IMG/VR virus record: IMGVR_UViG_2660238423_000033
Source of the DNA: a virus
Taxonomy: Duplodnaviria > Heunggongvirae > Uroviricota > Caudoviricetes
Strand: one strand, 5' to 3'
Length of the DNA stretch: 14,990 nt
Shown here: piece by piece, positions 1 through 14,990 of the stretch
Layout of the letters: every line of letters starts with the position of its first letter
How positions within the stretch are numbered: the stretch's first letter is position 1
Notes under the pieces: generated by a model
The model's database searches: none
Seen by the model: the letters and a program-made list of their open reading frames with translations, nothing else
What the model was told of the DNA's origin: nothing
Made by a program: the position numbers and the translations under genes

Positions 1-156
1 ATGGCAAAGCCGATCATCACGCTCAATGGCCTAAAAATCGTCATTATGTTGGGAATGCTGGTCATTATTCTCTGCGGTATCCGTTTTGCCGCCGAGATCA
101 TCGTGCCGTTTATTCTCGCATTATTTATTGCTGTTATATATAACTTATTTCGCATA
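1..156 (+). pseudogene. tqsA: 5' fragment of an AI-2E family transporter gene (TqsA/YdgG-like), interrupted after about 45 codons
   Basis: Translation [45 protein letters not shown] is a hydrophobic membrane-protein N-terminus that I recognise from memory as TqsA-like. From about nt 136 the frame diverges into AT-rich sequence (YNLFRITH) and stops at 154-156. Not in the ORF track because it is under 60 aa. Confidence 0.45.
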
Positions 157-862
157 ACACATTGATTTAATTAAATAATTAACACCGCAAAAGTGCCAAA
201 AATCGCAAAATGACTACACCAGTGACTACACCGTTCGGTGCACTGTATGAAACAACGTGGAACAAATAGACACAAGAAATATACAGGCGGATCATCTTTC
301 CAGGGGGAAGCACACCAATTCATGAGGGGCGTTAATGTCGATATGGGGATCCCCACCTACCGGAATTTTTTTCCGGTTAAACGTTAATCAGGCTGGTGGG
401 CTTTACCTGTTCGGTAGGTGTTATGATTATCGTAATACCTTTCCCCCAATGGGGTAAAAGCATCAACCGTAACGAAAGTCGTTATGGTTGCCACTGATAC
501 CCCAAATTTGGGTATCACGAGTAAGCCCCAAAATCTGGGTGTTACTCTTACTACCCAAACTACGGGTAGTTTCCGTAGTTTCATGGTCGAGTTGCAGATC
601 TGCAACTCCCCCATTAACCACAGGCGAATTTCCGCCTTCGGTCATTCCTTAATCATCTGCGTAATCATAATGATTATTCAGCAAGCGCAATTTTGCGCTT
701 TGCTTAAAGTTCAGCGAGTTACCGCGCCGACTTCCTCAAATTGAGGTTTCCGAAAATATCAGCGGGTTAGCGATTAAGCTGACCATTAATTAAACTGCGA
801 AAATGTCGTAGTTGTGAGGGGTGTAGCCAACCCATTTTTGGGCCGTCGGGAATATCAACCAG

Positions 863-1144
863 TTACCGCCGCAACCGCTCCGGCTTCTTCCAGTGGTACG
901 TGATTTTCTCCTTCTCCCGATACAGTTCAACGCGGCGATTGTAGGCCAGCATTTCAAGAACGCGGATCCGTATGTCGCGCATATCCGCATCATTAAGCTG
1001 GATACCATCACGGCGCATCACCTCAGCAACAACACGCGCATAATTTTCGGCTGTCACGCTGTCCGGCTGCGTGGTCTGTTCGTCAGCCTGCTGGCTGATT
1101 CCAGAGACGCGGCGGATTAATCGCAGTATTTCGGCTTCTGTCAT
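863..1144 (-). CDS. hypothetical protein (93 aa), last gene of the packaging operon
   Basis: ATG at 1144 with GAGG about 9 nt upstream, directly after the terL stop (1158). No family recognised (MTEAEILRLIRRVSG...). Confidence 0.5.
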   Translation of the reverse strand: MTEAEILRLIRRVSGISQQADEQTTQPDSVTAENYARVVAEVMRRDGIQLNDADMRDIRIRVLEMLAYNRRVELYREKEKITYHWKKPERLRR

Positions 1145-1157
1145 GCTGCTGACCTCA

Positions 1158-2819
1158 TTACACCCCGCTAAATTCTTCCAGTTTCTGGCGGTGGCTGTCG
1201 CTTATATCAAAAGCAAAATCCTCATGCTCTGCCTGGAATGTACCAAACGCCATCAGCGCCGCTACGCTCGGGTCTATCTTGTTCGGTGATTTTTTCTTGT
1301 TCGGCTTGATATTGGCGTTCGCGTCACTCTGCATCACGACGTTACTCATCGACCAGGACAACACCGGATCGCCACGATGCACAATCACCCTGCGGTTAAC
1401 AAAAACTTCGAACGATTTCGCCGCCGGACTGAATCTGAGGTAGGTTTGCGGGAACGGCTCCACCTCAAAACCAGCCCCCTGTAATTGCGTCCTGAGATGC
1501 GTGGCGTTCCACGTATCAAAGCCCACCAGCCTGATATTAAATTTCTCCGCATCCTGCATGATGTCATCTCTGATCCGGTCGTAATCAATGCAGTCACCTG
1601 GCGTTGTGCGTATCCAGCCCGCTTTAGCCCACTGGCGATAGACAGCGCGGTTTTTATTGGCGGGGTTCTGTAGCTGGAACTCCGGCAGATAATGACGGGA
1701 AACCAGCATGATATTTTTACCGACCGGAAAGGCATAGCACACGCTGGAAATATCGCTGGTTGATGATAAGTCCAGCCCCGCGTAACACTCCTGCCCGTGT
1801 AAATCTTCCTCCGTGAACGTTCCGGCACACTCAGCCCATGCGCCGTTACCCATCCACGGGGTAGCCCCCTGGCACCAGATATTAAATCGCTTTGTCATCA
1901 TCTCCACCCACTGCGACGGAATACCCCGCGCTTTCTGGATGGTTGAGGCCAGTTTTTCACGATCGACGGAAACATCAATATTAGGGTTCGCCTTTATCCA
2001 CATCGCCGGATCATCAACCTCGTTTTCGTCGTCCAGCTCGTAAATCAGTACAAAAATTGAATCGTTAACCTCTTCGCCGTCCAGGATCTGGCAGCAATAA
2101 TCATAGTGCTGTTTACAGGCTGAAACGACGTTGCTGCCTGATGTGGTAATGGCAAATAACAGCCCTTCGGGACGTGCGCCCATCCCCAGCTCAAGCGCGG
2201 AATAAACGCCGTTATCGGGGTGCAAGTGGTATTCGTCCACGATGGAAAGGCTTGGGTTTGTTCCCTCGATGGTTGCCGCTTTTGCTGCCAGCGGCTTTAA
2301 CAGGCTGTTGCTTTTCGGGTGTATCACCTTATGCGCCTGAATATTCACCCGCCTGCGTAACGGTCGGGATAAAAGGCACATCTGACGCGCATCATCAAAG
2401 ACGATCCGCGCCTGGTCACGGCTCACCGCTGCGGTGTAGATATCCTGCTGACCGTTCTCCATAATCAGAAACCAGTTAGCCAGAATCGCGGCGGTCGTGG
2501 ATTTCGCATTTTTGCGCGGCACTTCGATAAAGGCGCTCGTGTATTTGCGCCGTCCGGTGGCCTTAACCTTAAAGCCGAGGATGCACGCAAAGGCGAACTG
2601 CTGCCACGGCTCCAGCTCAATGGGTCTGCCACGCATCGGTCCTTTTACGTGCGGGCACACCCTGGAAAAGGCAATAAACCGCTCCACAACCTCACGATCG
2701 AACGTGTAAAGGGGGCTTTTAAGGTCCGAAAAGTACCGTTTAACGGCCTGTTTCAGCCGTTTACAGGCCGGAATTTTGCCCGTTTTTACGTCTTCTGCGT
2801 ACTTATTCCAGGCGGTCAA
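1158..2819 (-). CDS. terL: terminase large subunit (ATPase/nuclease)
   Basis: 553 aa with a characteristic TerL N-terminus (WNKYAEDVKTGKIPACKRLKQAVKRYFSDL) and typical length. The start codon is TTG at 2819 with AGAGGA 6 nt upstream; it overlaps the terS 3' end by 17 nt. Confidence 0.9.
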   Translation of the reverse strand: MTAWNKYAEDVKTGKIPACKRLKQAVKRYFSDLKSPLYTFDREVVERFIAFSRVCPHVKGPMRGRPIELEPWQQFAFACILGFKVKATGRRKYTSAFIEVPRKNAKSTTAAILANWFLIMENGQQDIYTAAVSRDQARIVFDDARQMCLLSRPLRRRVNIQAHKVIHPKSNSLLKPLAAKAATIEGTNPSLSIVDEYHLHPDNGVYSALELGMGARPEGLLFAITTSGSNVVSACKQHYDYCCQILDGEEVNDSIFVLIYELDDENEVDDPAMWIKANPNIDVSVDREKLASTIQKARGIPSQWVEMMTKRFNIWCQGATPWMGNGAWAECAGTFTEEDLHGQECYAGLDLSSTSDISSVCYAFPVGKNIMLVSRHYLPEFQLQNPANKNRAVYRQWAKAGWIRTTPGDCIDYDRIRDDIMQDAEKFNIRLVGFDTWNATHLRTQLQGAGFEVEPFPQTYLRFSPAAKSFEVFVNRRVIVHRGDPVLSWSMSNVVMQSDANANIKPNKKKSPNKIDPSVAALMAFGTFQAEHEDFAFDISDSHRQKLEEFSGV

Positions 2820-3159
2820 GCTCGTCCTCTTCTTCTGTTTCCGGTGGGTTTTTACGGCGGCTTATCGGGTCAAAACCGAGCAAGGAGGCCATTTTTATCA
2901 TCACCCTTTCAGCGTCTGATTTCGCGCTTAATGCGGGGTTTCTGCTCTCGCCGCCCTGACTGTTAACAATGCTGAACCCGCGCGCCGCAAGGTCTGCGAC
3001 GGCTTTCCGGTAAATGGAGTAGTTGACACAATACAGTTCCAGATTGCTCCAGTCGGCGGGGGTCAGGTCTCCCCGTTCCGCAAGCTGCCGCGATTTTTCC
3101 CGCCACTGCTTCACGGCGATGTCATCCAGGTAGGCGGGGGCTTTCGGTGGTCTTGCCAT
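2803..3159 (-). CDS. terS: terminase small subunit, P27 family
   Basis: 118 aa; MARPPKAPAYLDDIAVKQWREKSRQLAERGDLTPADWSNLELYCVNYSIYRKAV resembles P27-family TerS. Sits immediately upstream of terL. Confidence 0.8.
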   Translation of the reverse strand: MARPPKAPAYLDDIAVKQWREKSRQLAERGDLTPADWSNLELYCVNYSIYRKAVADLAARGFSIVNSQGGESRNPALSAKSDAERVMIKMASLLGFDPISRRKNPPETEEEDELDRLE

Positions 3160-3447
3160 GCTTATTTTTCGTCAGATTATTTTTCAAAAAATTCCCGTGC
3201 ATAAAAATTTGAGGAGGCGTTCGGTGCCCGGCGGGGTCGGGTTTGTCCTGAAAACGCCCCCCACCCCGTCATACAGCCTCATCAGCGATTGCGGAAACAT
3301 TCCATAACCTCGCGGTCACGGTCGGTTAATCGCTTCGCTGTGATGCGTTCTGCGCGTCCTGACGCTTTATCTTTATGCCCTGTTTCCTGTGTCTTCCATG
3401 CGTCACGCTGCCTTATAAGTCCACGGATAAGGCGGTTTTGTTCCCGC
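3160..3447. other. non-coding HNH-terS intergenic region, candidate cos (cohesive end) site
   Basis: 288 bp without a credible ORF between the HNH endonuclease and terS, containing a GC-rich tract (ggtgcccggcggggtcggg ... cgccccccaccccg). In HK97-like cos phages the cos site lies between the HNH gene and terS. Inferred, not demonstrated. Confidence 0.3.
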
Positions 3448-3888
3448 TCATTCATCAGCGTCATACATCCAGTTATTGCGGTTAGCGGCCCGTTCTTCCT
3501 CTTCATGAAATCCACCTGCGGCACGCTTGCTTTTTGTTGCCGGATCAAGCCATTTCGTTTTCTGGTTATGACACGCCTGGCACAATGGTTGATGGTTCCA
3601 TTCGGGCCAGAAGAGAACATCATCACCGCCATTAATCGGGATAATGTGATCCACCACCACGGCGGGCGTATATATCCCCTTCTCAAGGCATCGCACGCAT
3701 AACGGGTTTTTACTCAGATACATGGCGCGGTATTTGTCCCACTGTCTGGAGTACCCACGCGCGCGGCGGTGTCCTCGTCTGGCATCCTCTGCACGCCATG
3801 CCGCCCGCCTGTGCTCCTCACACTTGCCGGACTTCACGCGCCTGTTACAGCCTGGTTCTGTGCATCGTCTTAATGGTTGCCACGGCAT
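3448..3888 (-). CDS. HNH endonuclease (packaging-associated)
   Basis: 146 aa; Cys-rich N-terminus (CTEPGCNRRVKSGKCEEH) and an HNH core (VVDHIIPINGGDDVLFWPEWNHQPLCQACHNQKT). ATG at 3888 overlaps the connector stop by 1 nt. Confidence 0.85.
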   Translation of the reverse strand: MPWQPLRRCTEPGCNRRVKSGKCEEHRRAAWRAEDARRGHRRARGYSRQWDKYRAMYLSKNPLCVRCLEKGIYTPAVVVDHIIPINGGDDVLFWPEWNHQPLCQACHNQKTKWLDPATKSKRAAGGFHEEEERAANRNNWMYDADE

Positions 3889-4184
3889 CAGTACACCCCC
3901 ACATCACGGTAAGCCGTCCAGAGCGCGCCTATCGTCATGGGTACGCGCGTTTTTGCGTTATCCGCTACCAGCTGGCGATTCTCGTACAGGTGAGCGATAA
4001 ACATCATGCAGCCAATCTTTATGGCTGGCGTGAACTCCAGCCCGTCATCAAAGCGCCTGCCTATATGTATCTGGCACGCCTCAAGCGATGCGGCAATGTA
4101 TCCGCTGATTAACTGGTCTTCCTCGTCGCCATCGATGCGGCAATGGAGTTTCACTTCTTCCAGGGTGATAAGTTCTTCTGTCAT
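3888..4184 (-). CDS. gp6-like head-tail connector protein
   Basis: 98 aa; MTEELITLEEVKLHCRIDGDEEDQLISGYIAASLEACQIHIGRRF matches the gp6-like connector pattern. Start overlaps the upstream stop (ATGA). Confidence 0.7.
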   Translation of the reverse strand: MTEELITLEEVKLHCRIDGDEEDQLISGYIAASLEACQIHIGRRFDDGLEFTPAIKIGCMMFIAHLYENRQLVADNAKTRVPMTIGALWTAYRDVGVY

Positions 4185-4519
4185 TTTTCCGCGCCCTCAC
4201 GACAAAGAATTTCAAGGCGTGTCCTGGCGGCATCCGGCAGCGGCTGCCCGATGATATTCAGTACACGCCCCGCCAGCGGCCCCGTACTGACCTTTATCCG
4301 GCTGGTGGCGTTGATGTCCTTCCGGTACCGTATCCAGATCCTTACGGTACCAATCGCCAGCTCTGCACCCGATGAAATGGCCTCCTTGCTGCTGATCATG
4401 TTCACGCTTGCCCAGAGTGTGTGACCGTCCTCCCACGTTTCGAGTATTTCGCCGGTTATATCCCTGGTCTGTTTCAGGGTCTGAATCGTTACCCTGTCAC
4501 GCAGTCGCCCTATGTTCAT
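4181..4519 (-). CDS. head closure / head-tail joining protein (likely start at 4519; ORF track extends to 4561)
   Basis: MNIGRLRDRVTIQTLKQTRDITGEILETWEDGHTLWASV...VRIWIRYRKDIN fits the phage head-tail joining family. The ATG at 4519 overlaps the portal stop (ATGA) and has GAGGGAG upstream. Confidence 0.65.
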   Translation of the reverse strand: MNIGRLRDRVTIQTLKQTRDITGEILETWEDGHTLWASVNMISSKEAISSGAELAIGTVRIWIRYRKDINATSRIKVSTGPLAGRVLNIIGQPLPDAARTRLEILCREGAEK

Positions 4520-5727
4520 TCCGGTTTTTCTCCCTCGCTGATTTTTACTTCCTGTTTCCATGCCTGGCTGAACTCATCACCACCATCACGCGGGGACAGC
4601 CCTTCACGTTCGCGGGCTTCGTTCGGGCACATAACGCCGGATTTGATGCCGCGTTCATAGGTGGCAAAGCGTTCGCCAGGTGTGGCCCGTAACAGGTCCG
4701 CGCTGTCAAACTCCACCTGATACCGGATACCAGGTACAGGCGAGGCCACCAGCAGGGCGTTTTTTATCTGCTGCTCAAAGTTCGCCAGCCACGGGCGCAT
4801 CGTCATAGTGAGAAATGCGCGGCTTGCCTCGCTGAAATTGCTGTAGGTGCTGTTGCTGTATTCCTGCAAAAAAATCGGCGAGACGTTGAACATTCGGGCG
4901 ATGTCTTCAATGGTGAAGCGACGGGAGGCCAGCCATTCAGCATCCTGATTACTCATGCCCAGCTGCTGATAGCTCATACCCCCTTCAAGGATGGGCGTTT
5001 TTCCGGCGTTTCTGGCCCCTTTGTAGCGTTCCAGTGCGGCTAATGCCTGTTTGCCTTTCACGCCGTCCAGCCATTCGCCTGACGTGATAACCCCTGCCGC
5101 CATCATGCCATCACGCATCACGCTCGCGCCGTGGCGTTGTTGGGCCAGCCCAAGCCCCAGCGATTCGCGGCAGATGGTTACAGGTGAGCGCCCCATAAAA
5201 CCGTCATCCGTGGAGTAACGAAGGTGGAGAACCTCCCACGGTAAATAGTTGCGGGTGTTTCCGGTGTAGGCGTCAGTGATGCAGTAGCGCCAGTTGTGTT
5301 CGCCTGTCTGCTCCACGTTCACCGACTGCGGCGGGTAAGGATGTAAAGCCACCGGAAAACCATCACGCCCCCACTGAATCACCGCATAAGCATTACCGTT
5401 TAACAGGCAGTGGCGGATCATCATTCGCTTAAACTGGTAGGGAGTCTGCCACGCGTTCGGGCGCTCGTTGAGGATGTGATCGACCGGATGAGAATCAAGC
5501 CACTCTCGGGCCTCCTTCCCCTTCTCATTGCGTACCAGGTACAGGTAACACGGCATGGTAGCCACCGCCTCAGAGATGACCGTGACGGCGTTCATGACGG
5601 CGGGCAGTGATTCCGCTGTCCCCGATGATACGTACTCACCCGACCCCGTGTTCGATGTGCCGGCCAGCGCCATAAATTCATCCAGCGTCATGCTGCGCTG
5701 CTCTTTTTTTCTTCTGAAAGGCCACAT
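4516..5727 (-). CDS. portal protein, HK97 family
   Basis: 403 aa; N-terminal region (SLPAVMNAVTVISEAVATMPCYLY) and length are typical of HK97-family portals. ATG at 5727 is preceded by GGGGGTG. Confidence 0.9.
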   Translation of the reverse strand: MWPFRRKKEQRSMTLDEFMALAGTSNTGSGEYVSSGTAESLPAVMNAVTVISEAVATMPCYLYLVRNEKGKEAREWLDSHPVDHILNERPNAWQTPYQFKRMMIRHCLLNGNAYAVIQWGRDGFPVALHPYPPQSVNVEQTGEHNWRYCITDAYTGNTRNYLPWEVLHLRYSTDDGFMGRSPVTICRESLGLGLAQQRHGASVMRDGMMAAGVITSGEWLDGVKGKQALAALERYKGARNAGKTPILEGGMSYQQLGMSNQDAEWLASRRFTIEDIARMFNVSPIFLQEYSNSTYSNFSEASRAFLTMTMRPWLANFEQQIKNALLVASPVPGIRYQVEFDSADLLRATPGERFATYERGIKSGVMCPNEAREREGLSPRDGGDEFSQAWKQEVKISEGEKPE

Positions 5728-5728
5728 A

Positions 5729-6301
5729 TCACACCCCCGCTAAATCCGCCCACCAGCGGCGATTATCCGCACGCGGCATTTTTTCGGGGTGCTGCTCATA
5801 CAGGGAACGGCGGGCCAGCTCCACGCCGGAATCAGGGTAAGCCGGTACGGATGTAACGGTAATTTCGTACAGTTCCGCCACCAGCACGGTGCGCACGCAT
5901 GGATCTGTTGTGGTATCCCATACATCCTTACGGGAACGAAAGCCAAAGCTCATGCCGGATATATCACCACGTTTAACCAGTTCGATAACGTCACGCCCTG
6001 TGCTGGTATCCGGTGGGGTAAGTTCAAAGCGTAACCCTGTGTCGTCCTCTTCCAGTTTCAGCGTGCCGGAACGGGTGCGCCCCAGTAACATGCTGTGGTC
6101 ATGCTCATACAGGCCGCGAACGTCATTACCCGCCGCAAGCCACTCAGTAAACGCCCCCCGCTGGAATTTTTCGTAAAACTCCCCCCATAGCAGTTCTGAA
6201 AGCTTATCCCAGCGAACAACGTAGCCCGTCAGCGTACCGGCTCCGCTGGTGGTGATTTCCGATGACCGGATTTCCATACTCTTCATAATTTTTTCACCCA
6301 T
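5729..6301 (-). CDS. prohead maturation protease, HK97 family (true start probably the ATG at 6286)
   Basis: Motifs GYVVRWDKLS, GAFTEWL, LYEHD, LLGRT, DDTGLRFEL and GDISGMSFGFR resemble the HK97 prohead protease family. The first ATG (6301) has no Shine-Dalgarno; the ATG at 6286 has GGTGA 7 nt upstream. Confidence 0.85.
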   Translation of the reverse strand: MGEKIMKSMEIRSSEITTSGAGTLTGYVVRWDKLSELLWGEFYEKFQRGAFTEWLAAGNDVRGLYEHDHSMLLGRTRSGTLKLEEDDTGLRFELTPPDTSTGRDVIELVKRGDISGMSFGFRSRKDVWDTTTDPCVRTVLVAELYEITVTSVPAYPDSGVELARRSLYEQHPEKMPRADNRRWWADLAGV

Positions 6302-6340: not shown

Positions 6341-7498
6341 TTAATCGTCGTCCTGTGGCAGTTCCAGAATCTTGATCGCGTTCGAATCCACCACGCCACC
6401 GCCTAAATATTTCTGCGTGAAAATTTTGATGAAGCCCGGCTCTGTGAGGTTGTCCGGTCTGGTGCGAACACCTGTTTCGTGATCAACAATGTAGTAACCG
6501 CGTTTGAAGTCACCCAGGGCAATAACGTTATCAGGCATAAACTCCAGATATTCGACCGGAAGGCCCAGCAACGTATCAGGATCACCCGCCTGTAAACGGT
6601 CGCGCCAGATGTAATCACCGTTCGCGTTCTTCACCTTCTGAAGTTTTGCCGCCGTCGTGGAGTTAACCACCCAGACCGCGTTTTTGCGGTATTTTTTACG
6701 TAATGCAAATTTCAGGTCGATCAGCGGGTCCGCAGATGTCCACGCCAGAGATTCGGAAGGTTTAATTACCTGCAACGTACCAAAATCACGCTCTTTGTCG
6801 TTCTTCTCTGCACGGGGTACGGATAAAAAACCTTTTGCTTTTTTGTCACCGTCGCCCACAACCAGATCGCTTTCTTCGGTTTCCGTGAAGGTGTCGCCAA
6901 TCTCACCCGTCAGCCATGAAAGGATGTCCACATCGGAAAAATCCACGATTTCCTGTGTGGTGCGCGGGTACGCATAGACCGGATACAGCTTAATGCTCAC
7001 CTCGTTAATCTGCGGGGTGCTGGTCTGTTCGCGTGCCTTACCCTCTTCACCGTGGTTAACGGTCGCACCGCCAGCGGAAACAAGCTGCTTAAACTCGTTG
7101 CTGCTGATTTTCTTCACGGTACAGATGCGGCGCATGGTGGATTCATCCGCCAGCATTCGCATGATTTCGGTGTTCAGCTCGGGGATAACGGTATAACCAC
7201 CATCAGCGGGAACGCCTGTACTTAATGCGCGGGTTTCACCTGTCAGGATGTAGTTGCGTAGTTCTGCGGGGTCAGTGGTCTGACTGCTTTTACCTGGCTT
7301 GCTGCGCTCTTCGTCTGCAATGGCTTCAAGGCGGGAAATGTCTTTATCGAGGGATTCAGCTTTAGTGCGTAATTCGTCAAATTTTGCGCCCTCAGCATCG
7401 TTAAGACTGCGGTTTTCTTTTTCCGCGTTCTCCAGCATGTCGCGCATCTGATTTTTAATGGCGGTTTTCTGCTGGCGTAATTCGATTATTCTCGGCAT
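6341..7498 (-). CDS. major capsid protein, HK97 fold, with N-terminal coiled-coil (delta/scaffold-like) region
   Basis: 385 aa; N-terminal about 90 residues are charged and heptad-like (IIELRQQKTAIKNQMRDMLENAEKENRSL...ISRLEAIADEE), as in HK97 delta domains. Position next to the protease and portal supports the call. ATG at 7498. Confidence 0.8.
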   Translation of the reverse strand: MPRIIELRQQKTAIKNQMRDMLENAEKENRSLNDAEGAKFDELRTKAESLDKDISRLEAIADEERSKPGKSSQTTDPAELRNYILTGETRALSTGVPADGGYTVIPELNTEIMRMLADESTMRRICTVKKISSNEFKQLVSAGGATVNHGEEGKAREQTSTPQINEVSIKLYPVYAYPRTTQEIVDFSDVDILSWLTGEIGDTFTETEESDLVVGDGDKKAKGFLSVPRAEKNDKERDFGTLQVIKPSESLAWTSADPLIDLKFALRKKYRKNAVWVVNSTTAAKLQKVKNANGDYIWRDRLQAGDPDTLLGLPVEYLEFMPDNVIALGDFKRGYYIVDHETGVRTRPDNLTEPGFIKIFTQKYLGGGVVDSNAIKILELPQDDD

Positions 7499-7708: not shown

Positions 7709-7738
7709 CAGTGAACAACGTGGAACAACCACGAACAA
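7709..7738 (+). repeat. three GAACAA hexamers phased at exactly 10 bp (candidate regulator binding array)
   Basis: cagtGAACAAcgtgGAACAAccacGAACAAataa, with hexamers at 7713, 7723 and 7733. The same architecture occurs at 246-275 and, on the other strand, at 13681-13730. Confidence 0.45.
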
Positions 7739-7789: not shown

Positions 7790-8013
7790 TCAGTCCCTGA
7801 TCCCTTTCAGAAATTCTATCAATGCATCTATCTGTTCAGGATTTACCGCCAGCATTTCACCGGATAGAGCACATCTCACAAAACCATGCTGATCCTTTTC
7901 AATCAGTGCGCCCGTCTCCAGGAATGCGCGGTAATCATTGATGCTCATCGTCTCCATGTTGTCAGCATGGTATTTATCACGCTGTTTTAATATCTCATCA
8001 AATTTCATCGGCA
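7790..8013 (-). CDS. hypothetical protein (74 aa from the ATG at 8013; ORF track extends to 8092)
   Basis: MPMKFDEILKQRDKYHADNMETMSINDYRAFLETGALIEK...; GAGGA lies 7 nt upstream of the ATG at 8013. Flanked by terminators on both sides, so it is a stand-alone transcription unit. No family recognised. Confidence 0.5.
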
Positions 8014-8107
8014 TTGTTTTTTCCTCTGTTGTGTCTGTTTGTTTCAGATAGTAACTATGCCTGACCGTGACGAAAACCCGGTAATGCACCATACCGTTTC
8101 AACTGGT

Positions 8108-8138: not shown

Positions 8139-8411
8139 TTAGCTGTCTGGGTAATTACGCCATATTTCATCGCTTACACCATCTATACCCATTTCAGCAT
8201 AAGTGCGATCTACTGCCTTTCTCAGGTCTCTGAAGTTATCCGGCGGCTCCGGTGGCTTCTGTGCCTTCCTGGAACATTCCAGCCGTCGCATCGTAACCTG
8301 ATGCCGTTCCTTGTCTGTCTCCACCAGCAGCATGACTTCACCCCATCGCGCCGCCGCCCTCCGGTAAAAGCCTTTCGCCTCGAGTTCTTCCGCTATGCGG
8401 TCATGTACCAT
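8139..8411 (-). CDS. PerC-like transcriptional regulator (91 aa from the ATG at 8411)
   Basis: MVHDRIAEELEAKGFYRRAAARWGEVMLLVETD resembles the PerC family N-terminus as I remember it. GAGGGGG lies 5 nt upstream of the ATG at 8411; the longer track ORF would overlap ssb. Confidence 0.5.
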   Translation of the reverse strand: MVHDRIAEELEAKGFYRRAAARWGEVMLLVETDKERHQVTMRRLECSRKAQKPPEPPDNFRDLRKAVDRTYAEMGIDGVSDEIWRNYPDS

Positions 8412-8421: not shown

Positions 8422-8832
8422 TCAGAACGGAATACCGTCACCGTAAGGGTCATCGCCTCCCGCTGGTGGCTGATTACCCTGTGTGCCTGTGGTTTTGCGT
8501 CTGTTCCCGCCAGGAAGTGCCGCACGGGCACTGATTACGCTGTCTGCAATAACCTGATAACCCTGCCGCGTTTCCCCATTCTGTCCGGTCCACTGGCTGA
8601 CCTGCATCGTGCCGGATACGCTGGCAACGTCGCCTTTTTGATGTTTAGCCAGGAAGTCGGCCTGCTTACCAAATGCGATGACCGATAGCCATAACGTCGC
8701 CTGCCCATCCTGCGCCTGACTACATGGCAGCGATACCGCCATACGCGCCAGCGTCATCGGTGTACCCTTGCTGGTCTGTTTTACCTGCGGGTCGTCCACC
8801 AGCCGCCCGTAAGCTGCTATCTGTGCTGTCAT
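8422..8832 (-). CDS. ssb: single-stranded DNA-binding protein (short, 136 aa)
   Basis: OB-fold core WLSVIAFGKQADFLAKHQKGDVASVSGTMQVSQWTGQNGETRQGYQVIADSV, a Gly/Pro/Gln-rich linker and the canonical acidic C-terminal tail ending DGIPF. GGAGAGGTGG precedes the ATG. Confidence 0.8.
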   Translation of the reverse strand: MTAQIAAYGRLVDDPQVKQTSKGTPMTLARMAVSLPCSQAQDGQATLWLSVIAFGKQADFLAKHQKGDVASVSGTMQVSQWTGQNGETRQGYQVIADSVISARAALPGGNRRKTTGTQGNQPPAGGDDPYGDGIPF

Positions 8833-9107
8833 GATTCCACCTCTCCGGTTTTAACGTTGATGGTTGTTACCTGTTCCGCTTCGGCAATCTCCCGCTCTGT
8901 CAGCGTGGCAAAATTTGCCGCCGTCGTGGTCATGAATGCGCTTATCAGTTCGGGATGTGCTTTCGCGTATCCTTCCCCCGCGTGGCGGTCTATCGTTCTG
9001 ATTGCCACCTTTAAAGCGTGCTCTGTCATGTCTAACGCGCGATATTTCGGTTCTGTTCTGTCTCTGCGTTTTTTGAGTGATTTATTAAATTTCCCTGAAG
9101 TGTGCAT
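8829..9107 (-). CDS. hypothetical protein (92 aa), first gene downstream of the origin
   Basis: ATG at 9107 with GAGGGGG upstream; its stop overlaps the ssb start (ATGA). No family recognised. Confidence 0.45.
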   Translation of the reverse strand: MHTSGKFNKSLKKRRDRTEPKYRALDMTEHALKVAIRTIDRHAGEGYAKAHPELISAFMTTTAANFATLTEREIAEAEQVTTINVKTGEVES

Positions 9108-9149: not shown

Positions 9150-9385
9150 TCCCCTTGTCTACCTTATCTACCTTAGTGGCCCTCATACCAGTAATGGCGC
9201 GGCTTTCAGCTGGGTAGAGTGCTTTTATCCACTATCTACCCCGTGTCTACCTCCCTGTCTGATTCAGGTAAAATCAGGTAGAGAGGGTAGATAGTGGGTA
9301 GACAGTAAAAAAAGGCTATCTACCTAACTTAATGCACTGAATTAAATGTATTTTTCTTTACTCAGGTAGACAGGGTAGACAGCAA
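9150..9385. repeat. replication origin: iteron array (GGTAGACA and variants, both orientations) around an AT-rich core
   Basis: At least 11 copies of GGTAGA(C/T/G)A or its complement TGTCTACC/TATCTACC (for example 9156, 9166, 9233, 9244, 9278, 9287, 9298, 9317, 9366, 9375), with an AT-rich stretch at 9330-9360. Begins 14 bp after the pri-rep stop. Confidence 0.65.
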
Positions 9386-9395
9386 TTACAAAAAA

Positions 9396-11150
9396 TTATA
9401 AAAACGCGTCGCACTCGTCTGTTGTTATTGCGTTAGTCTGCGTTACTCCCTTAACTTTCCGCGTAATATATTCATGTCCGTAAACTTTCGCGGCTGGCTT
9501 CATAGCCTTGCCAAAGTCATTTACGTTTAGCGGTTTGCTCCTGCCTGCGTACGCCATAAACGCCAGATAGACGCGGTAAAGGCTGTTTCTGGTCGTGTAC
9601 TTCACTGAATCGCCACCGCCGCCCATCATCAGGCCGCGTGCTTCCTCCAGAAAATTCAGGAACTGGCAAAACTCAATAACCGGATCCGTCTGTTGCTTTA
9701 TTGCCAGAGCTTCATCACCGTCACGCTGTTCCAGTAGTAAAGCCCGTGCCTTCTCAGGGTCGGTAAAGTTCGCCAGCAATCGGCGGATAATGACAGGGAT
9801 TTCAGCCGCGATCTTTTCCGGTAGCTCCCTGTCTTTTTCGGCCTCACTGACGATATTGTCGAAACGGAAAATCACGCGACGACGTGCCACACCTCCGGCC
9901 CGTTCGGTGAATATCATCGGGTTATTGTTGGTCGCCAGCACCACCGCCCTGATTACAGCCGTGAAACGCTTTTCGTATTTCGGGTTAATTTCCACGGGGT
10001 CACCGCCCGTGATTTTCTTGATGCCCGTTCCTTCGCCTGTATATTTCGGCTGGTCAGCCAGGACGATAAGACGACTCCCGACAACCTGCGCACGTCCACC
10101 AGCATCATCAAGCGATGTCATTTCAGCGCTTACCGTGTTCTGTTTCCCTGCCAGAAGGCTGGCTATGTGCGTGAATGTACTTTTACCGCTCCCGCCGTCT
10201 CCGGTGGCCTCAATAAACATCTGCCAGTCGTACCGGTTCGCCATAATCATGTACAGCGCGGCACATATACGCATCATCTTGCGCGGGTCTTTTCCGGCTG
10301 CGTGCTCAAGCCATTTATGAAAGTTTGGCGCGTTATCGCGGATGTTCTCCCCTGGTGCTGGTGGCGTGTACTCAATGCCGTTGTGCGTGGTGATCCAGTT
10401 CTCCGGCGTGTGCGGGGAAAATTCCCCCGTTTTCAGGTCAAGCGCACCATTGGCGAACGGCAGCAAATCGCCGGACGGCTCGCCCATTGGTTCGGCAATA
10501 ACTTTTAACGCTTCCACGGCGTTATTGATTACGCGCTTGCTGAAAGTGGCCCTGTGCTCTGAATAGATCGCCACCATTTCGCGGCTAAGTTCCATTGTGC
10601 TGACCGGACACCATACCCCGCCGCGCCATACGTGAACGATTTCACTTTCAGGATGTACGCAAACGCCATCAAAGCGATCGGCAAGCAGCTGCGCGCGCTC
10701 ACTGTCCGCCATCTGCGAAAGTTGCGCCTTTTGCTTTACCGGAAGCTCAATGACCAGACCATCAGAAAGATTCTGGCGCTCACGAGCCAGATATTCGCGC
10801 CAGTTCTCCACCTTCTGACCGTGCATACCATCAGGGTAAAAATTTGCATCCTGTACGCCTGCCGCCGCCAGCTTCTGACCAATCGCCTTTATCATTACTG
10901 GCGCAAGATATCCGGCCCTGAATATGCGCACGGATTTTCTGCCTTCCGGCACAATTTGCAGCTTATCCAGTTCGGATAACTGCTGCTCCCCAAGCCACAC
11001 AGGAGGCTCATTATCTCCGGCCATACGCGCGTCATGTTCCTGCCATTGTTTTGCGTGTGACCAGGCATCACTACCCGCAAAAATAATGACTTCAGTTTCT
11101 TTGTGTTTTATGCCGCGTGACTGCTGTTTTACGTTCGGTGCCAGTTTCAT
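9396..11150 (-). CDS. primase/replication initiator (Pri-Rep), P4-alpha/D5-like with a Walker A NTPase
   Basis: 584 aa; Walker A motif ATGDGGSGKST mid-protein, with the N-terminal half consistent with a primase region. ATG at 11150 has AGGGG upstream and overlaps the upstream stop. Confidence 0.85.
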   Translation of the reverse strand: MKLAPNVKQQSRGIKHKETEVIIFAGSDAWSHAKQWQEHDARMAGDNEPPVWLGEQQLSELDKLQIVPEGRKSVRIFRAGYLAPVMIKAIGQKLAAAGVQDANFYPDGMHGQKVENWREYLARERQNLSDGLVIELPVKQKAQLSQMADSERAQLLADRFDGVCVHPESEIVHVWRGGVWCPVSTMELSREMVAIYSEHRATFSKRVINNAVEALKVIAEPMGEPSGDLLPFANGALDLKTGEFSPHTPENWITTHNGIEYTPPAPGENIRDNAPNFHKWLEHAAGKDPRKMMRICAALYMIMANRYDWQMFIEATGDGGSGKSTFTHIASLLAGKQNTVSAEMTSLDDAGGRAQVVGSRLIVLADQPKYTGEGTGIKKITGGDPVEINPKYEKRFTAVIRAVVLATNNNPMIFTERAGGVARRRVIFRFDNIVSEAEKDRELPEKIAAEIPVIIRRLLANFTDPEKARALLLEQRDGDEALAIKQQTDPVIEFCQFLNFLEEARGLMMGGGGDSVKYTTRNSLYRVYLAFMAYAGRSKPLNVNDFGKAMKPAAKVYGHEYITRKVKGVTQTNAITTDECDAFL

Positions 11151-11446
11151 TTTTTACCCCTGAATACGTTAAGCATCTTTTTTATTTCCTGAATATTGGC
11201 GCGTGCTTTCTTCCTGCTGGTTGGTTTACTGCGGGGCGCTGCCTGTACCAGAGAAAAATCACGCCGAAACTGATAAACAGGCATCACGCAATCATATTCG
11301 TAGCCTTCACGGCGGTAGGTTACGCGCCGTTCTTCCACGCCCTTAATCATTACCGTGCCGCCGTACTGGTCGCGGTAAATATCACCGCGCGTAAATTTAG
11401 GGTGAGTGTTGCCACTGGCAGTTAAGCCAGAATATTTAAGTTTCAT
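11147..11446 (-). CDS. hypothetical protein (99 aa), coupled to pri-rep
   Basis: ATG at 11446 with GGAG upstream; stop overlaps the pri-rep start (ATGA). Basic C-terminus. No family recognised. Confidence 0.5.
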   Translation of the reverse strand: MKLKYSGLTASGNTHPKFTRGDIYRDQYGGTVMIKGVEERRVTYRREGYEYDCVMPVYQFRRDFSLVQAAPRSKPTSRKKARANIQEIKKMLNVFRGKK

Positions 11447-11451: not shown

Positions 11452-11685
11452 TTATTCTCCGGTGTGCTGTTCTTTATATCTGTCGTGCAATAGATCTATT
11501 TCTTGCAGTTCCATTATTACAGGCTCAAGAAGCGTTATTAATGCCGTGGCAATTCTTGATTTTTGTTTGTCGCGTTCATTGTCGCCAAGTGTTTCAAGCC
11601 ATATGCGCAATATTTCCAGCATGTTTTCACTGTGAGAAAGTGCAAGAAATGCGCGGTATATTGTTTCGTGGTAAATATCACGCAT
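11452..11685 (-). CDS. hypothetical protein (77 aa)
   Basis: ATG at 11685 with GAGGA 8 nt upstream; overlaps the upstream gene by 8 nt. Confidence 0.5.
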   Translation of the reverse strand: MRDIYHETIYRAFLALSHSENMLEILRIWLETLGDNERDKQKSRIATALITLLEPVIMELQEIDLLHDRYKEQHTGE

Positions 11686-11911
11686 GGCTTACATCCTCAG
11701 GAAATTTTCTTCTGTAATGCGCCTCTGCCACATATTCCGCATAATCGGCGGCGATATTCAGTACATCAAGCCCCGTTGATTTATATTCTCTCGTGGAAAG
11801 TAAGAAAAAAGCCGCTCTAATAAGCTCTGGCATTGACGAAAGCGCATCAGCCGCATCATCAGGAACGCCGGAAAATTCCTGTTTCAGGGAATTAAAACGA
11901 TCATCACGCAT
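11678..11911 (-). CDS. hypothetical protein (about 78 aa from the ATG at 11911; ORF track extends to 11938)
   Basis: MRDDRFNSLKQEFSGVPDDAADALSSMPELIRAAFFLL...; GGGGTGG upstream of the 11911 ATG. Start choice is uncertain. Confidence 0.4.
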   Translation of the reverse strand: MRDDRFNSLKQEFSGVPDDAADALSSMPELIRAAFFLLSTREYKSTGLDVLNIAADYAEYVAEAHYRRKFPEDVSHA

Positions 11912-12143
11912 AACCACCCCCATTTTCACAATCAGCAATCAGGATGGCTTTAGCCTCATTCAGCGCCATATCAGCACTAAGTTGCATAACCGCCAGCGAA
12001 TGAGGAACGAAAGCCCCGGCATATTCTGTTTCACTGGTGTCGTGCTTATGCGCCCTGTCAGCAATAACAGAAATATCAATCAGCGCATGCATTAGCGTTA
12101 TGATGGCTTCGGCGGCTGCGTCCGGACGGGTGTTATTGCACAT
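11904..12143 (-). CDS. hypothetical protein (79 aa)
   Basis: Strong AGGAGGT 6 nt upstream of the ATG at 12143. No family recognised. Confidence 0.55.
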   Translation of the reverse strand: MCNNTRPDAAAEAIITLMHALIDISVIADRAHKHDTSETEYAGAFVPHSLAVMQLSADMALNEAKAILIADCENGGGYA

Positions 12144-12339
12144 GGCACACCTCCTGACGAATACGGGCAGCGAATACCATCACGCAGCCAGCCGGAGATT
12201 GCTGGCGTGCTTCCTGTTCGCTGGTGGCCTCAATGGTAATCACGCGCGGTTGTGCCGTGCTCAGGGCGATAAAACGCCAGATGTATTTATTCAGGTTGTG
12301 CGAGTCCCGCCCTTGCGGGTGTATGGTATGATTTCTCAT
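12133..12339 (-). CDS. hypothetical protein (68 aa), first gene of the leftward operon
   Basis: Internal ATG at 12339 of the 339-codon track ORF, with GAGG 5 nt upstream. Only this C-terminal part has a ribosome-binding site; the remainder of the long ORF is rejected. Confidence 0.4.
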   Translation of the reverse strand: MRNHTIHPQGRDSHNLNKYIWRFIALSTAQPRVITIEATSEQEARQQSPAGCVMVFAARIRQEVCHVQ

Positions 12340-12529
12340 AGCTACCTCGATACTTTCGCTATCGTTGGTGGTTAGACGCCCTGCATGTGTGCCACCACTG
12401 CGGGGCGTTGTTGTTTGGTGCATCGCACCATTCGTTTTTAACCTATCAGTAAGTGAATCGCACTTCAAGTCTTTCTCTGAAATTTTTTTTGTGTATACTG
12501 AATCGCACCAACTTAGAGAGGATTCAGTA
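12340..12529. promoter_or_regulatory. divergent promoter/operator region between the leftward operon and the plus-strand RHH gene
   Basis: Plus-strand candidate -10 TATACT at 12494-12499 with a TG just upstream. Direct repeats TGAATCGCAC at 12454-12463 and 12499-12508, plus a related CATCGCACC at 12421-12429. Confidence 0.4.
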
Positions 12530-12709
12530 ATGGCAACAGGTTCAACAAATAATAAGTCGCAACAGTTAAATGCCAGATTCCCGCATGATGTTGTTGCAGA
12601 CTTAGAAAAAAATTTAGATGAAGGTGAAAGCAAGGCGCAATTTATAGTTACTGCCGTTAAAGGTGAGATCAAACGCCGCCAGCGTCGCAAGGCCAAAGAG
12701 CAGGAGTAA
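12530..12709 (+). CDS. ribbon-helix-helix (Arc/Mnt-like) DNA-binding protein, 59 aa
   Basis: QQLNARFPHDVVADLEKNLDEGESKAQFIVTAVKGEIKRR aligns by eye with the Arc repressor strand-helix-helix (QFNLRWPREVLDLVRKVAEENGRSVNSEIYQRVMESF). GAGAGGA precedes the ATG at 12530. Confidence 0.5.
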   Translation: MATGSTNNKSQQLNARFPHDVVADLEKNLDEGESKAQFIVTAVKGEIKRRQRRKAKEQE

Positions 12710-12766
12710 CCATCACCAGCGCCGTGGTGTGAGTAACTACGGCGCATTGCTATGCAGGACAACACA

Positions 12767-12940
12767 ATGACCGATAAAGAATTGACCAAAACATTATCAC
12801 CGGCACGGAAAAGACGGCGCAGAAAGATAGAACATGAATCAGAAAGATTCGCGCCATGTGCTTTTGCCCTTGAGCAATTCCTTAAAGAGTACAGGGAAAA
12901 GCGCTCATTGCAGGTATGGCAACGAACTGAACCAGACTGA
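12767..12940 (+). CDS. hypothetical small basic protein (57 aa from the ATG at 12767)
   Basis: MTDKELTKTLSPARKRRRRKIEHESERFAPCAFALEQFLKEY; AGGA 7 nt upstream. Co-oriented with the RHH gene and upstream of the plus-strand terminator. Weak call. Confidence 0.3.
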   Translation: MTDKELTKTLSPARKRRRRKIEHESERFAPCAFALEQFLKEYREKRSLQVWQRTEPD

Positions 12941-13035
12941 TTGCATTGCCCACCAGCCTGATAGCGGCTATCATCCCCGTGCTTATGTTTGGGATCACAC
13001 ACACAAACGGCGCAGCGGGTTATCTGTTCAGAAAG

Positions 13036-13063
13036 GCGGCTCCATTTCGGGGCCGCTTTTTTT
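13036..13063 (+). terminator. rho-independent terminator ending the plus-strand cassette
   Basis: gcggctcc-atttc-ggggccgc, an 8 bp stem with one G-U pair, followed by T7 (13057-13063). Confidence 0.6.
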
Positions 13064-13209
13064 ATGCCTGAAAAACCCCAATTTTGTGGTTTTCCAGTCT
13101 CACCAGGGCGAACGAATCCCCGCCCACGTTCTGGCGTATATTCAATCTTCATGGTTATAGCTCTGTGTTCAGATGATTGATGTGTGGCGGCTGTGTGCCG
13201 CCAGCGTGA

Positions 13210-13398
13210 TTAATGAACTGCCTTGCAGCTATCCTTCCAGGCCAGAACCTCGGATAAAGACCAGCCAACGGAACGACCGCCAAGTTTACGACGTGATGGG
13301 AATTGTCCGGCCTTTTCCAGGCGGTAGCGGCATGAGCGGCTAAGGCCTGTTAGCTTTTCGCATTCTTTTTCACGTATAAACCGATCAGTGCTTAACAC
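13210..13398 (-). CDS. alpA: AlpA-family transcriptional regulator / excisionase-like protein
   Basis: 62 aa; EKECEKLTGLSRSCRYRLEKAGQFPSRRKLGGRSVGWSLSEVLAW matches the AlpA family. The start is GTG at 13398 with AGGGGG 6 nt upstream. A hairpin without a U-tract (tggcggc-tgtgt-gccgcca, 13185-13203) lies 7 nt downstream. Confidence 0.85.
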   Translation of the reverse strand: MLSTDRFIREKECEKLTGLSRSCRYRLEKAGQFPSRRKLGGRSVGWSLSEVLAWKDSCKAVH

Positions 13399-13680: not shown

Positions 13681-13730
13681 TTGTTCGTAGTTGTTCCGCA
13701 TTGTTGCTCATTGTTGCATGTTGTATCTGT
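13681..13730 (-). repeat. five 10-bp-phased (G/C)AACAA-type repeats upstream of alpA
   Basis: Plus strand reads ttgttcgtag ttgttccgca ttgttgctca ttgttgcatg ttgtatctgt, five consecutive 10-mers each starting TTGT(T/A); on the minus strand these are ...GAACAA, GAACAA, CAACAA, CAACAA, ATACAA. Same motif family as 7709-7738 and 246-275. Confidence 0.5.
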
Positions 13731-13740
13731 TCGCATATCC

Positions 13741-13756
13741 AGTATGCGCATACTGA
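13741..13756. promoter_or_regulatory. perfect 16 bp palindrome CAGTATGCGCATACTG between the int stop and the phased repeats
   Basis: cagtatgc/gcatactg is exactly self-complementary. No U-tract follows on either strand, so it looks like a dimeric protein-binding site rather than a terminator. Confidence 0.4.
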
Positions 13757-13772
13757 AAAAACACGAAAAAAA

Positions 13773-14990
13773 TTATTTTCTTCTGGCTACTGGTAGCGTG
13801 GTTACGTTTTCATGTGTTCCCGCCAGTATCCCTAACCGCTCCGTCCACATATCCAGCGCATTGCGTTTAGCATCCAGATAACGGGAATGATTATAAACTC
13901 GCTGCATTCCTGGCATCTGATGACCTGTAAGCTGCTCCACGACATGCGGATCAACGCCTAAATCGTTCAGCATGGTTGTAAAGGTGCGCCGGATGTCATG
14001 CAGTGACCAGTGAGGATGATTAAGCCTCCTGTGCGCTAATCTTCCATACTGCGATACGCTGGCCTCCTGTTTCGCTTCCCCCAGCAATAAGCCCGTGTGC
14101 CTGTTCTGCTCCACCAGCTGCGTGACGAACGGCAGGATCGCTTCCGGTATGGGCCGGAATATTGCGACCTTCGTTTTGCTGTGCTCCTTCGGAACGGTCC
14201 ATAGCATTTCCGTAAAATCCCACTCCCCGATCTCCGATAGCCTCAGTTCTACCGTCCTGGCTCCGAAGACAATCAGGAGGCGGATTAACGCGACGTAGTA
14301 AGGGGAAAATATTTTTTTGTCCAGTGCCTGCAATAATTCGCCAAGTTCTTTGTTACTTAAGACACGTTCGCTTATATCCGGTTTTTTCCCAACGTCCGCC
14401 ACGTTCAGATCGTCCAGAACGTTGCTGATTGCATAGCGCCGCCTACGGCAGAACTTAAGCGCCTGTTTGCACGCCTGTAGCACGAATCCGGCAGTAACAG
14501 GCGTTCGCTTTGCCACCTGGTCAAAACAGGCCAGCCAGTGCCGTAGCTCGCATTTATCCAGCGGCATAGCACCAATCTGCTGTATTACGTGATTATTAAG
14601 TCGCCTTTTCAGGGCGATATAATCCACGCGGTTTTCCTTTACGTAATACTCAAGCCAGTAGGTGAGCGCATCGCCAACCGTTACGGGCTTTAACGCTTCC
14701 TGTACGGTGTAATTCATCTCATGACGTGGATTTTTCCCCTCAGCCAGCCATGTGCGACACTGTGCGGCTTTTTCCCTGGCTGCTTTCAGGCTCAGATCAG
14801 GATAACTTCCCAGCTTAATGCGTTCGGGTCGTGTCTCCCTTCCCGTTCCGGCCCTGTATGTGAAATACCAGGTCAATTTCCCTGATGTTAAATATTTCAC
14901 GCTCAGGTTTCCGCCATCACTATAAAACGTGTTTTTCTCCGCTGGCTTACCATGAAGTTTCCTTAGCAAGGTATCGCTCAGTTTGTTCAT
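13773..14990 (-). CDS. int: tyrosine site-specific integrase, P4 family
   Basis: 405 aa; N-terminal arm-binding domain (FYSDGGNLSVKYLTSGKLTWYFTYRAGTGRETRPERIKLGSYPDLSLKAAREKA) and a C-terminal catalytic region (HDIRRTFTT, LTGHQMPGMQRVYNHSRY carrying the catalytic Tyr). The ATG is the last three bases of the window. Confidence 0.95.
   Translation of the reverse strand: MNKLSDTLLRKLHGKPAEKNTFYSDGGNLSVKYLTSGKLTWYFTYRAGTGRETRPERIKLGSYPDLSLKAAREKAAQCRTWLAEGKNPRHEMNYTVQEALKPVTVGDALTYWLEYYVKENRVDYIALKRRLNNHVIQQIGAMPLDKCELRHWLACFDQVAKRTPVTAGFVLQACKQALKFCRRRRYAISNVLDDLNVADVGKKPDISERVLSNKELGELLQALDKKIFSPYYVALIRLLIVFGARTVELRLSEIGEWDFTEMLWTVPKEHSKTKVAIFRPIPEAILPFVTQLVEQNRHTGLLLGEAKQEASVSQYGRLAHRRLNHPHWSLHDIRRTFTTMLNDLGVDPHVVEQLTGHQMPGMQRVYNHSRYLDAKRNALDMWTERLGILAGTHENVTTLPVARRK

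Follow-up and report, generated by a model that had tools for sequence, protein, structure and literature searches.

A 15-kb Escherichia coli element inserted in tqsA, very probably a capsid-forming phage-inducible chromosomal island of the EcCIEDL933 lineage

The IMG/VR virus record IMGVR_UViG_2660238423_000033 is a stretch of 14,990 nucleotides (hereafter the window, by which we mean the whole stretch that was analysed) with an integrase gene, a replication module and a full set of genes for building and filling a phage head, and with no genes for tails or lysis. What kind of element is this: a satellite that makes its own heads, a satellite that remodels the heads of a helper phage, or the remains of a prophage? 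We are highly confident that it is the first of these, and that nearly the whole of a 15.06-kb capsid-forming phage-inducible chromosomal island (cf-PICI), which belongs to the EcCIEDL933 lineage and is inserted in the E. coli gene tqsA, lies within the window. Such an element is not new, because its class has been published and its close relative EcCIEDL933, which is near-identical to it in the head and packaging module, has been characterised in detail.

The case for this answer starts with gene content. There are 24 credible open reading frames (ORFs) in the window, 23 of them on the minus strand, and profile searches against Pfam and NCBIfam gave family matches for all 13 functional gene calls (Table 1). 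Of the components in the cfPICI model of SatelliteFinder (PMC10085698), the window contains every one of the 11 core ones, and the two that are forbidden (tail and holin) are absent. The left module of a cf-PICI is represented by an integrase, an AlpA-type regulator and a primase-replicase, which are 82-98% identical to their EcCIEDL933 homologues over the shared parts. The head set is present and intact (PF05065, PF04586, PF04860, PF05521/TIGR01563 and PF05135/TIGR01560), and the element has its own packaging set of HNH endonuclease (PF01844), TerS (PF05119) and TerL (PF03354 with PF20441). These genes run in the order capsid, protease, portal, connectors, hnh, terS, terL, which is the order reported for proteobacterial cf-PICIs and that of the EDL933 map. 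Size also agrees, i.e., approximately 15 kb, as for a small (T=4) capsid, with EcCIEDL933 at 15.4-15.5 kb. For context, 969 cfPICIs have been catalogued by SatelliteFinder, and they occur in 13% of Enterobacteriaceae genomes (PMC10085698).

The first-pass annotation, made from the letters of the window alone, had called the integrase, AlpA, the Walker-A primase, ssb, perC and the head and packaging genes, had described the genes as intact and tightly coupled, and had proposed a cf-PICI that fills its own small capsids and depends on a helper for tails and lysis. Every one of those gene calls found its profile, and the proposal as a whole is supported by the 11 components and by the near-identity to EcCIEDL933. 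Coupling is visible at four junctions where start and stop codons overlap (portal/head-closure, head-closure/connector, connector/HNH and terS/terL), and the genes are intact.

EcCIEDL933 lies between roxA and phoQ in E. coli O157:H7 EDL933 (NZ_CP008957.1, approximately 1,680,300-1,695,500). Window positions 851-9083, which contain orf92, ssb, perC, orf74, the genes from capsid to terL, and orf93, match it with 97.3% DNA identity over 8,235 bp. Identity is 92.5% in the int-alpA region and 92.9% in DUF4222 and the primase N-terminus, while 9084-10728 (the C-terminal two-thirds of the primase, and the origin) and 11462-12716 are unrelated to EcCIEDL933. Both elements are approximately 15 kb and share the gene order from int to orf93 (including ssb, perC, DUF4222 and an Icd-like gene), the candidate cohesive-end (cos) gap and short TTGTT repeats at four positions. 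They differ in their chromosomal site (the roxA-phoQ intergenic region in EDL933, tqsA in the window), in their replication module (a DUF927 primase with ATAACCCGCA iterons in EDL933, D5_N/DUF5906 with TCTACC iterons in the window) and in the small ORFs between alpA and DUF4222, where the window adds a YlcI/YnfO gene on the plus strand. The departures from EcCIEDL933, which concern the attachment (att) site, the integrase, the primase C-terminal domain with its origin and the region downstream of alpA, are ordinary PICI mosaicism. In the nine head and packaging genes, there are 135.5 synonymous and 27.5 non-synonymous differences to EcCIEDL933, i.e., a ratio of non-synonymous to synonymous substitution rates (dN/dS) of 0.055. 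Between copies at different chromosomal sites, such a value means strong purifying selection.

The biology of EcCIEDL933 has been worked out by experiment. Mutagenesis and electron microscopy showed that it forms small capsids and packages only itself (10.1101/2022.09.08.507074). The same study found that alpA is needed for induction and transfer, that each gene of the packaging module is needed for transfer and not for replication, and that transfer is kept with helper capsid mutants and lost with helper tail mutants (10.1101/2022.09.08.507074). Its heads are 42-47 nm across with T=4, and its capsid structure has been solved (10.1101/2025.02.11.637232).

Because the corresponding proteins of the window are 96-100% identical to those of EcCIEDL933 and the gap between orf60 and terS is virtually identical, we infer a small-head, helper-tail life cycle for this element too. 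The P4-type integrase would keep it in tqsA via a 9-bp core. A helper siphophage would turn on alpA, and AlpA would drive excision and expression of the element. The primase-helicase would replicate the resulting circle from the adjoining TCTACC iteron origin, aided by the element's own single-stranded DNA-binding protein (SSB). The capsid, S78 protease and portal would build a T=4 head of approximately 47 nm, which would fit approximately 15 kb and exclude the helper genome. TerS, TerL and HNH, with help from orf60, would recognise cos (probably located in the 122-bp gap upstream of terS), cut it and package the DNA, after which the head-closure protein and gp6-like connector would finish a neck that accepts helper-made tails. 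Lysis would be supplied by the helper. In this scheme, induction, small-head assembly, cos cutting and tail capture are modelled on EcCIEDL933, and we predict that packaging specificity and tail compatibility are the same as in that element.

The capsid protein of the window equals that of PDB entry 9gyi at 382 of 385 residues, and at the remaining three it shows exactly the substitutions by which the window departs from EDL933. From this match, we expect 9gyi to be the EcCIEDL933 capsid of 10.1101/2025.02.11.637232. The cleavage motif STGVPAD (SxGxxAD) is present at residue 93, and the connector loop at 227-248, which has been proposed as the T=4 determinant (10.1101/2025.02.11.637232), is unchanged. 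A terminator-like hairpin follows the capsid gene at 6331-6310.

In its families, the head and packaging module resembles that of phage HK97: both have an HK97-fold capsid with a cleaved delta domain, an S78 protease, a portal, a gp6-like connector and an HNH-assisted cos terminase, and the EcCIEDL933 capsid superimposes on the HK97 protein with a root-mean-square deviation of approximately 1 Å (10.1101/2025.02.11.637232). However, the HK97 head is T=7, whereas the EcCIEDL933 capsid has the extra 227-248 loop and forms a T=4 shell; gene order also differs, and tail, lysis and immunity genes are absent from the window element. Among solved structures, the second-best sequence match is the capsid of RcGTA, the gene transfer agent (GTA) of Rhodobacter capsulatus (PDB 6tb9, E = 7.6e-47), which is likewise a small HK97-fold head produced from a chromosomal element. 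GTAs, however, package random host DNA, have their own tails and have no integrase, replicon or cos-specific self-packaging, and none of this applies to the window element.

By its position, and by comparison with HNH-dependent packaging of the HK97 type, the 122-bp gap that separates orf60 from terS probably contains the cos site. This gap holds a G-rich segment (GGGGTGGGGGGCG...CCCGACCCCGCCGGGC) and is identical to that of EcCIEDL933 bar two changes, which adjoin the ribosome-binding site of terS. The neighbouring orf60 is a probable homologue of EcCIEDL933 gene 1792 (we take this number from the gene order, with the capsid gene as 1786), and in a mutant of gene 1792, transfer is severely reduced, not abolished. 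The terminal region that classical PICIs also have was considered as a copy of lambda cos, an idea that we rejected: lambda-type cosN (GGGCGGCGACCT, up to two mismatches) occurs only once, at chance level, inside the primase gene.

Tails and lysis would have to come from elsewhere. Searches of Pfam, NCBIfam and PHROG found no tail or lysis gene among the 24 ORFs of the window, in agreement with the initial reading. With 86% of the element coding and no gap longer than 725 bp (the next are 374, 291 and 288 bp), a tail module could not be hidden in it. Apart from a remnant downstream of alpA, the unassigned ORFs encode 60-99 amino acids, and their PHROG matches are to groups of unknown function or transcription regulation only. 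A hidden holin was considered and rejected, as only orf79 is just over the hydropathy threshold (at 1.76, and its stretch includes a charged residue) and there is no endolysin.

To place the ends of the element, we aligned the window junction, the other junction in NZ_AP027170.1 (L001, a complete-genome copy that is 99.3% identical to the window) and the empty tqsA site of K-12 (L020, 3914-4948). The att core is 9 bp long (TGCTGTTAT, window 129-137). tqsA is split near codon 45 and only these 9 bp are duplicated, so the gene is disrupted in carriers. At the other end, the window stops at an internal ATG of int, the annotated GTG start being 12 nt beyond it. From L001, the element extends approximately 200 bp past position 14990 and includes there the first four int codons (if translation starts at the GTG), the attL arm and the second copy of the core, for a core-to-core length in L001 of 15,059 bp. 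An extent of 136-14990 had been proposed for the element; its start agrees with the core at 129-137, and its end falls short by those 200 bp. A search outside the element for tail genes and for a second att site had also been suggested: the second core was found in L001, and the L001 flanks (12 kb on each side) contain core genes only, with no tail or lysis genes among them (mdtJI on one side; the rest of tqsA, pntBA and ydgH on the other).

Of 5,426 complete E. coli genomes, 163 carry 80% or more of the window. The 15-kb content and its boundaries are the same across 163 genomes and are seen at two or more att sites. The tqsA site itself was seen in three copies: L001 and L005 (both by annotation) and the window (by junction alignment). 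Carriers come from diverse E. coli hosts (cattle, pig, human, wildebeest and dog), and Shigella flexneri carries a capsid which is 99% identical to that of the window. Together, host diversity and the Shigella match imply recent horizontal spread.

Phages are much more distant. By DNA, no phage record matches more than 13% of the element (78% identity in the best one), and in our phage collection, full-size phage capsids are at most 40% identical to the window capsid. Capsid matches of 58-65% come from a 106.5-kb Klebsiella phage record, a 3.8-kb fragment and records of 15-16.5 kb. Three records that are induced prophages or phages by description, LR881103.1 (16,548 bp), OR544139.1 (15,321 bp) and PQ793804.1 (16,506 bp), have capsids with 65%, 58% and 34% identity, respectively, and are probably cf-PICIs deposited as phages.

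The replication module is where the window parts from EcCIEDL933. An iteron origin adjoining the primase had been proposed on first reading, and we consider it real because of how its repeats cluster: TCTACC occurs 12 times in the window (3.5 expected), none of 200 shuffles reached 12, and 11 of the 12 copies sit inside 222 bp (9158-9379, in a 288-bp gap) directly downstream of the primase stop codon. The N-terminal 163 amino acids of the primase are 82% identical to EcCIEDL933 Rep, and the remainder has been replaced. This primase/origin module is present in 562 complete E. coli genomes, classical PICIs included. On sequence grounds, we read the change as an exchange in which the primase C-terminal domain and its own iterons moved as a matched unit. 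Sharing a replication module with a classical PICI agrees with published work, in which modules pass between the left halves of PICIs and those of cf-PICIs (PMC10085698).

How do other explanations fare? The locus could be a decayed HK97-like prophage, in which deletion of the tail, lysis and immunity genes has left a non-functional head and packaging remnant beside an integrase. Its head and packaging genes do belong to HK97-type phage families, some siblings have a frameshifted terL, and the ORF after alpA is a recombination remnant. However, all 13 functional genes of the window are intact, the dN/dS of 0.055 in the nine head and packaging genes is measured against a copy at a different chromosomal site, and the 15-kb content with its boundaries is conserved across 163 genomes and two or more att sites. 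In its left half, the element has the PICI int-alpA-pri module, in common with classical PICIs; no full-size phage capsid exceeds 40% identity, phage records match at most 13% of the element, and the tail, lysis and immunity (repressor) modules of a temperate HK97-like prophage, which would be approximately 40 kb, are absent from both the window and the L001 flanks. The 97%-identical EcCIEDL933 is functional by experiment. We consider decay very improbable. That same left half could instead suggest a classical PICI or a P4-like satellite, i.e., one that remodels helper-encoded capsids. Classical E. coli PICIs (EcCICFT073-type, for example the cspD-clpS island of strain K-15KW01) have the same int-alpA-Icd-like-DUF4222-primase-ssb arrangement, with a primase and origin at 91% DNA identity to those of the window, and perC, orf93 and part of the non-coding end are found among them too; the primase is moreover of the P4 family. 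The right half, however, is a different matter. Classical PICIs use helper-made capsids and carry only genes for capsid remodelling or packaging redirection (a ClpP-capsid fusion, DUF1441), without portal, connectors, HNH or TerL, whereas the window has all of these plus a protease and a full-length capsid, and that capsid is essentially the one solved as a satellite-encoded T=4 shell. In the SatelliteFinder PICI model, the portal and two head-tail joining components are forbidden (PMC10085698). With P4-like satellites, the likeness is limited to the integrase, AlpA and primase families, and no window ORF belongs to the Sid, Psu or Delta families (capsid-size and transactivation genes of satellites that use the capsid proteins of P2-type helpers) or is Rpp-like. 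We give this explanation practically no credence.

A further alternative accepts the class and denies the life cycle: the element could be a stranded cf-PICI, inherited vertically only, because a swapped replication/origin module or post-alpA region blocks induction or replication, or because its hosts have no compatible helper. Relative to EcCIEDL933, the primase C-terminal domain with its origin and positions 11462-12716 have indeed been replaced, the ORF after alpA is truncated or fused, and even EcCIEDL933 was not induced by the prophages resident in EDL933 (10.1101/2022.09.08.507074). Yet the primase and iterons were exchanged together as a matched unit, this unit is common (the 562 genomes include other PICIs), the diverse hosts and the Shigella capsid imply recent horizontal spread, and the head genes are under purifying selection, so stranding seems highly unlikely to us. 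We therefore keep to a cf-PICI with the life cycle of EcCIEDL933, and the following points count against it. The function of the window copy is argued from comparison of sequences alone, and cos is placed by position alone. For the final stretch of approximately 200 bp with the second att copy, we rely on a genome that is 99.3% identical. Sibling copies can decay, as terL is frameshifted in NZ_AP027170.1 (L001 13159-14819), although it is intact in the window. Lastly, the replication/origin module and the region downstream of alpA are unlike those of EcCIEDL933, so induction or replication could differ.

Table 1. Features of the window and of related copies. Coordinates are window positions unless a locus is named; percentages are identities to EcCIEDL933 homologues.
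Feature	Coordinates	Strand	Families, identity and remarks
tqsA 5' fragment (autoinducer-2 (AI-2) exporter), cut by insertion	1..137	+	RefSeq in L001: partial AI-2 transporter
Non-coding int-distal arm	138..862		725 bp; repeats, hairpin array, part shared with classical PICIs
TTGTT-N5-TTGTT	251-265	-	Int-distal att arm
orf93, conserved terminal hypothetical	863..1144	-	phrog_1561; 93.5%; also at classical PICI ends
TerL	1158..2819	-	TTG start, intact; TerL_ATPase + TerL_nuclease; 98.7%
TerS	2803..3159	-	P27/Terminase_4 family; 100% protein identity, 13 synonymous differences
Candidate cos region	3160..3281		Position between orf60/hnh and terS
orf60	3282..3464	-	phrog_3173; 100% identical to EDL933 protein
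HNH endonuclease, packaging accessory	3448..3888	-	PF01844; 98.6%
gp6-like head-tail connector (adaptor)	3888..4184	-	PF05135, TIGR01560; 99.0%
Head closure/completion	4181..4519	-	SPP1 gp16 family; PF05521, TIGR01563; 96.4%
Portal	4516..5727	-	PF04860, E = 9e-91; 99.3%
HK97-family prohead serine protease S78	5729..6301	-	PF04586; 97.4%
Major capsid protein, HK97 fold	6341..7498	-	PF05065, E = 1.6e-61; 99.2%
TTGTT-N5-TTGTT-N5-TTGTT, candidate operator	7714..7738	-	Upstream of capsid operon; same position in EcCIEDL933, L005 and Shigella locus L006
orf74	7790..8014	-	phrog_1957; 100%
PerC-family regulator	8139..8411	-	PF06069, E = 3e-44; 98.9%
SSB	8422..8832	-	PF00436; 99.3%
orf92	8829..9107	-	phrog_1231; 88.9% over 81 amino acids
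Iteron origin	9158..9379		11 copies TCTACC/GGTAGA, both orientations
Primase-replicase	9396..11150	-	D5_N, DUF5906, Pox_D5, TIGR01613 P4-family; Walker A GDGGSGKST
DUF4222 protein	11147..11446	-	PF13973; 91.9%
orf77, orf86 and orf79, three small ORFs	11452..12143	-	phrog_2196, phrog_2512, phrog_5146, all unknown function
Icd-like ORF (host cell-division inhibitor-like)	12133..12339	-	NF033153; phrog_6196; 53% to Icd-like protein
YlcI/YnfO-family small protein, sole plus-strand gene	12530..12709	+	NF041551; phrog_949; no Pfam match
N-terminal remnant of variable gene downstream of alpA	12715..13152	-	81% to N-terminal part of EDL933 WP_001304194.1
AlpA regulator/excisionase-like	13210..13398	-	PF05930; 98.4%
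Four phased 10-bp TTGTT repeats	13681..13725	+	int-alpA intergenic; same position in EcCIEDL933
P4-type tyrosine integrase	13773..14990	-	PF13356 (Arm-DNA-bind_3) + PF00589 (Phage_integrase); 91.1%
TTGTT repeats outside the window	L001 27088-27102; L003 8241-8255, 9627-9651, 15884-15908, 23479-23493		

Two kinds of short repeat stand out. One is a direct repeat, TGACTACACC-AG-TGACTACACC, which is found in both att arms (window 211-232 and L001 27037-27058). EcCIEDL933, whose integrase is 91% identical, carries a diverged version of it (GGTGTAGTTAATGGTGTAGTTA), and the two copies of TGACTACACC are probably arm-type sites for Int. The other is TTGTT, phased at 10 bp (TTGTT-N5-TTGTT), which occurs six times in the window (0.06 expected). 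In the four full elements that were compared, which include the tqsA lineage, EcCIEDL933 and the Shigella copy, such repeats occur only in both att arms, in the int-alpA gap and shortly before the capsid gene, with none in the chromosomal flanks. We found no description of them in the papers that we read. They are candidate operators for AlpA (as an excisionase-like, or Xis-like, protein) or, alternatively, further arm-type sites for Int.

Twin identical terminator-like hairpins (AGCCGGAGAAATCCGGCT followed by a T run) flank orf74 at 8133-8116 and 7779-7762 on the minus strand, just ahead of the TTGTT repeats and the capsid operon. The late operon may need its own activator or anti-termination. 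A tentative scheme, which we think more doubtful than not, is that TTGTT is an AlpA operator that couples excision, AlpA's own expression and activation of the head operon (or anti-termination past 8133-7762). With the same doubt, the swapped regions after alpA and in rep might also give the tqsA lineage a helper range unlike that of EcCIEDL933; we met neither idea in the papers that we read.

The int-distal arm is also structured. Five or six strong hairpins form an array at 440-640 (fold z-scores of -8.4 and -9.6 for the two strands), and an 18-nt repeat (AATATCAGCGGGTTAGCG-like) occurs three times at 707-868. The right end of EcCIEDL933 matches positions 156-492 with 90% identity, and a sub-segment of approximately 120 bp (approximately 491-613) is common to classical PICIs at the same int-distal position. 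A scan of the whole window against Rfam (E <= 0.1) gave no match, so this hairpin-rich end is not a known RNA family. ORFs inside 138-862 were treated as spurious; neither the two at 384-614 and 484-744 nor the variable-region ORFs matched any Pfam family.

The region between alpA and DUF4222 is variable, and cf-PICIs are known to vary in the gene downstream of alpA. Here, that gene is reduced to a remnant of approximately 150 amino acids, which diverges from WP_001304194.1 at approximately 12717, has no family match and is a pseudogene in the L001 annotation. A 339-amino-acid ORF spans 12133-13152, and we considered it as one gene and rejected this: it joins the N-terminal remnant, in frame, to an Icd-like C-terminus. 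The YlcI/YnfO gene sits inside this frame on the opposite strand, and the frame resembles a recombination scar. None of orf77, orf86 and orf79 is conserved in EcCIEDL933, and of the ten small or variable ORFs that were scanned with PADLOC, none matched a known defence system.

Some of these small genes had seemed a possible novelty. What had been called a ribbon-helix-helix cassette is, by its profile match, a small YlcI/YnfO-family gene on the plus strand. The suggestion that its combination with ssb and perC might make an undescribed variant does not hold, as ssb and perC are present in EcCIEDL933 and YlcI/YnfO genes in sibling PICIs. PerC genes are common in Gram-negative PICIs, and the EcCIEDL933 homologue reportedly had no effect on LEE1 promoter fusions (PMC11773190).

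Exchange can also be seen at a single chromosomal site. In O157:H7 strain E32511 (NZ_CP038380.1, L019 9342-18184), the roxA-phoQ site, which holds the cf-PICI in EDL933, is occupied by a classical PICI. That island has lambda-like capsid, decoration and terS genes and a RepA-type helicase, together with the same alpA, ssb, perC and orf93. Set against EDL933, it shows module swapping at one att site.

No new principle follows from the window, as cf-PICI biology was worked out with EcCIEDL933, which has head and packaging proteins 96-100% identical to those of the window. cf-PICIs make their own heads and borrow only tails, and EcCIEDL933 costs its helper little. They can also release tail-less, DNA-filled capsids that are later joined to the tails of other phages, and pairing with tails from other species spreads genes across genera. 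What the window adds is documentation of a common mosaic of the EcCIEDL933 lineage, integrated in tqsA, and an illustration of how replication/origin modules and integrases are exchanged between classical PICIs and cf-PICIs. It also shows that the cf-PICI class can be recognised from raw sequence by a first-stage reading, and its regulatory TTGTT repeats offer a small testable lead. For the bacterial host, the insertion disrupts the AI-2 exporter gene, with possible consequences for quorum sensing or biofilm formation.

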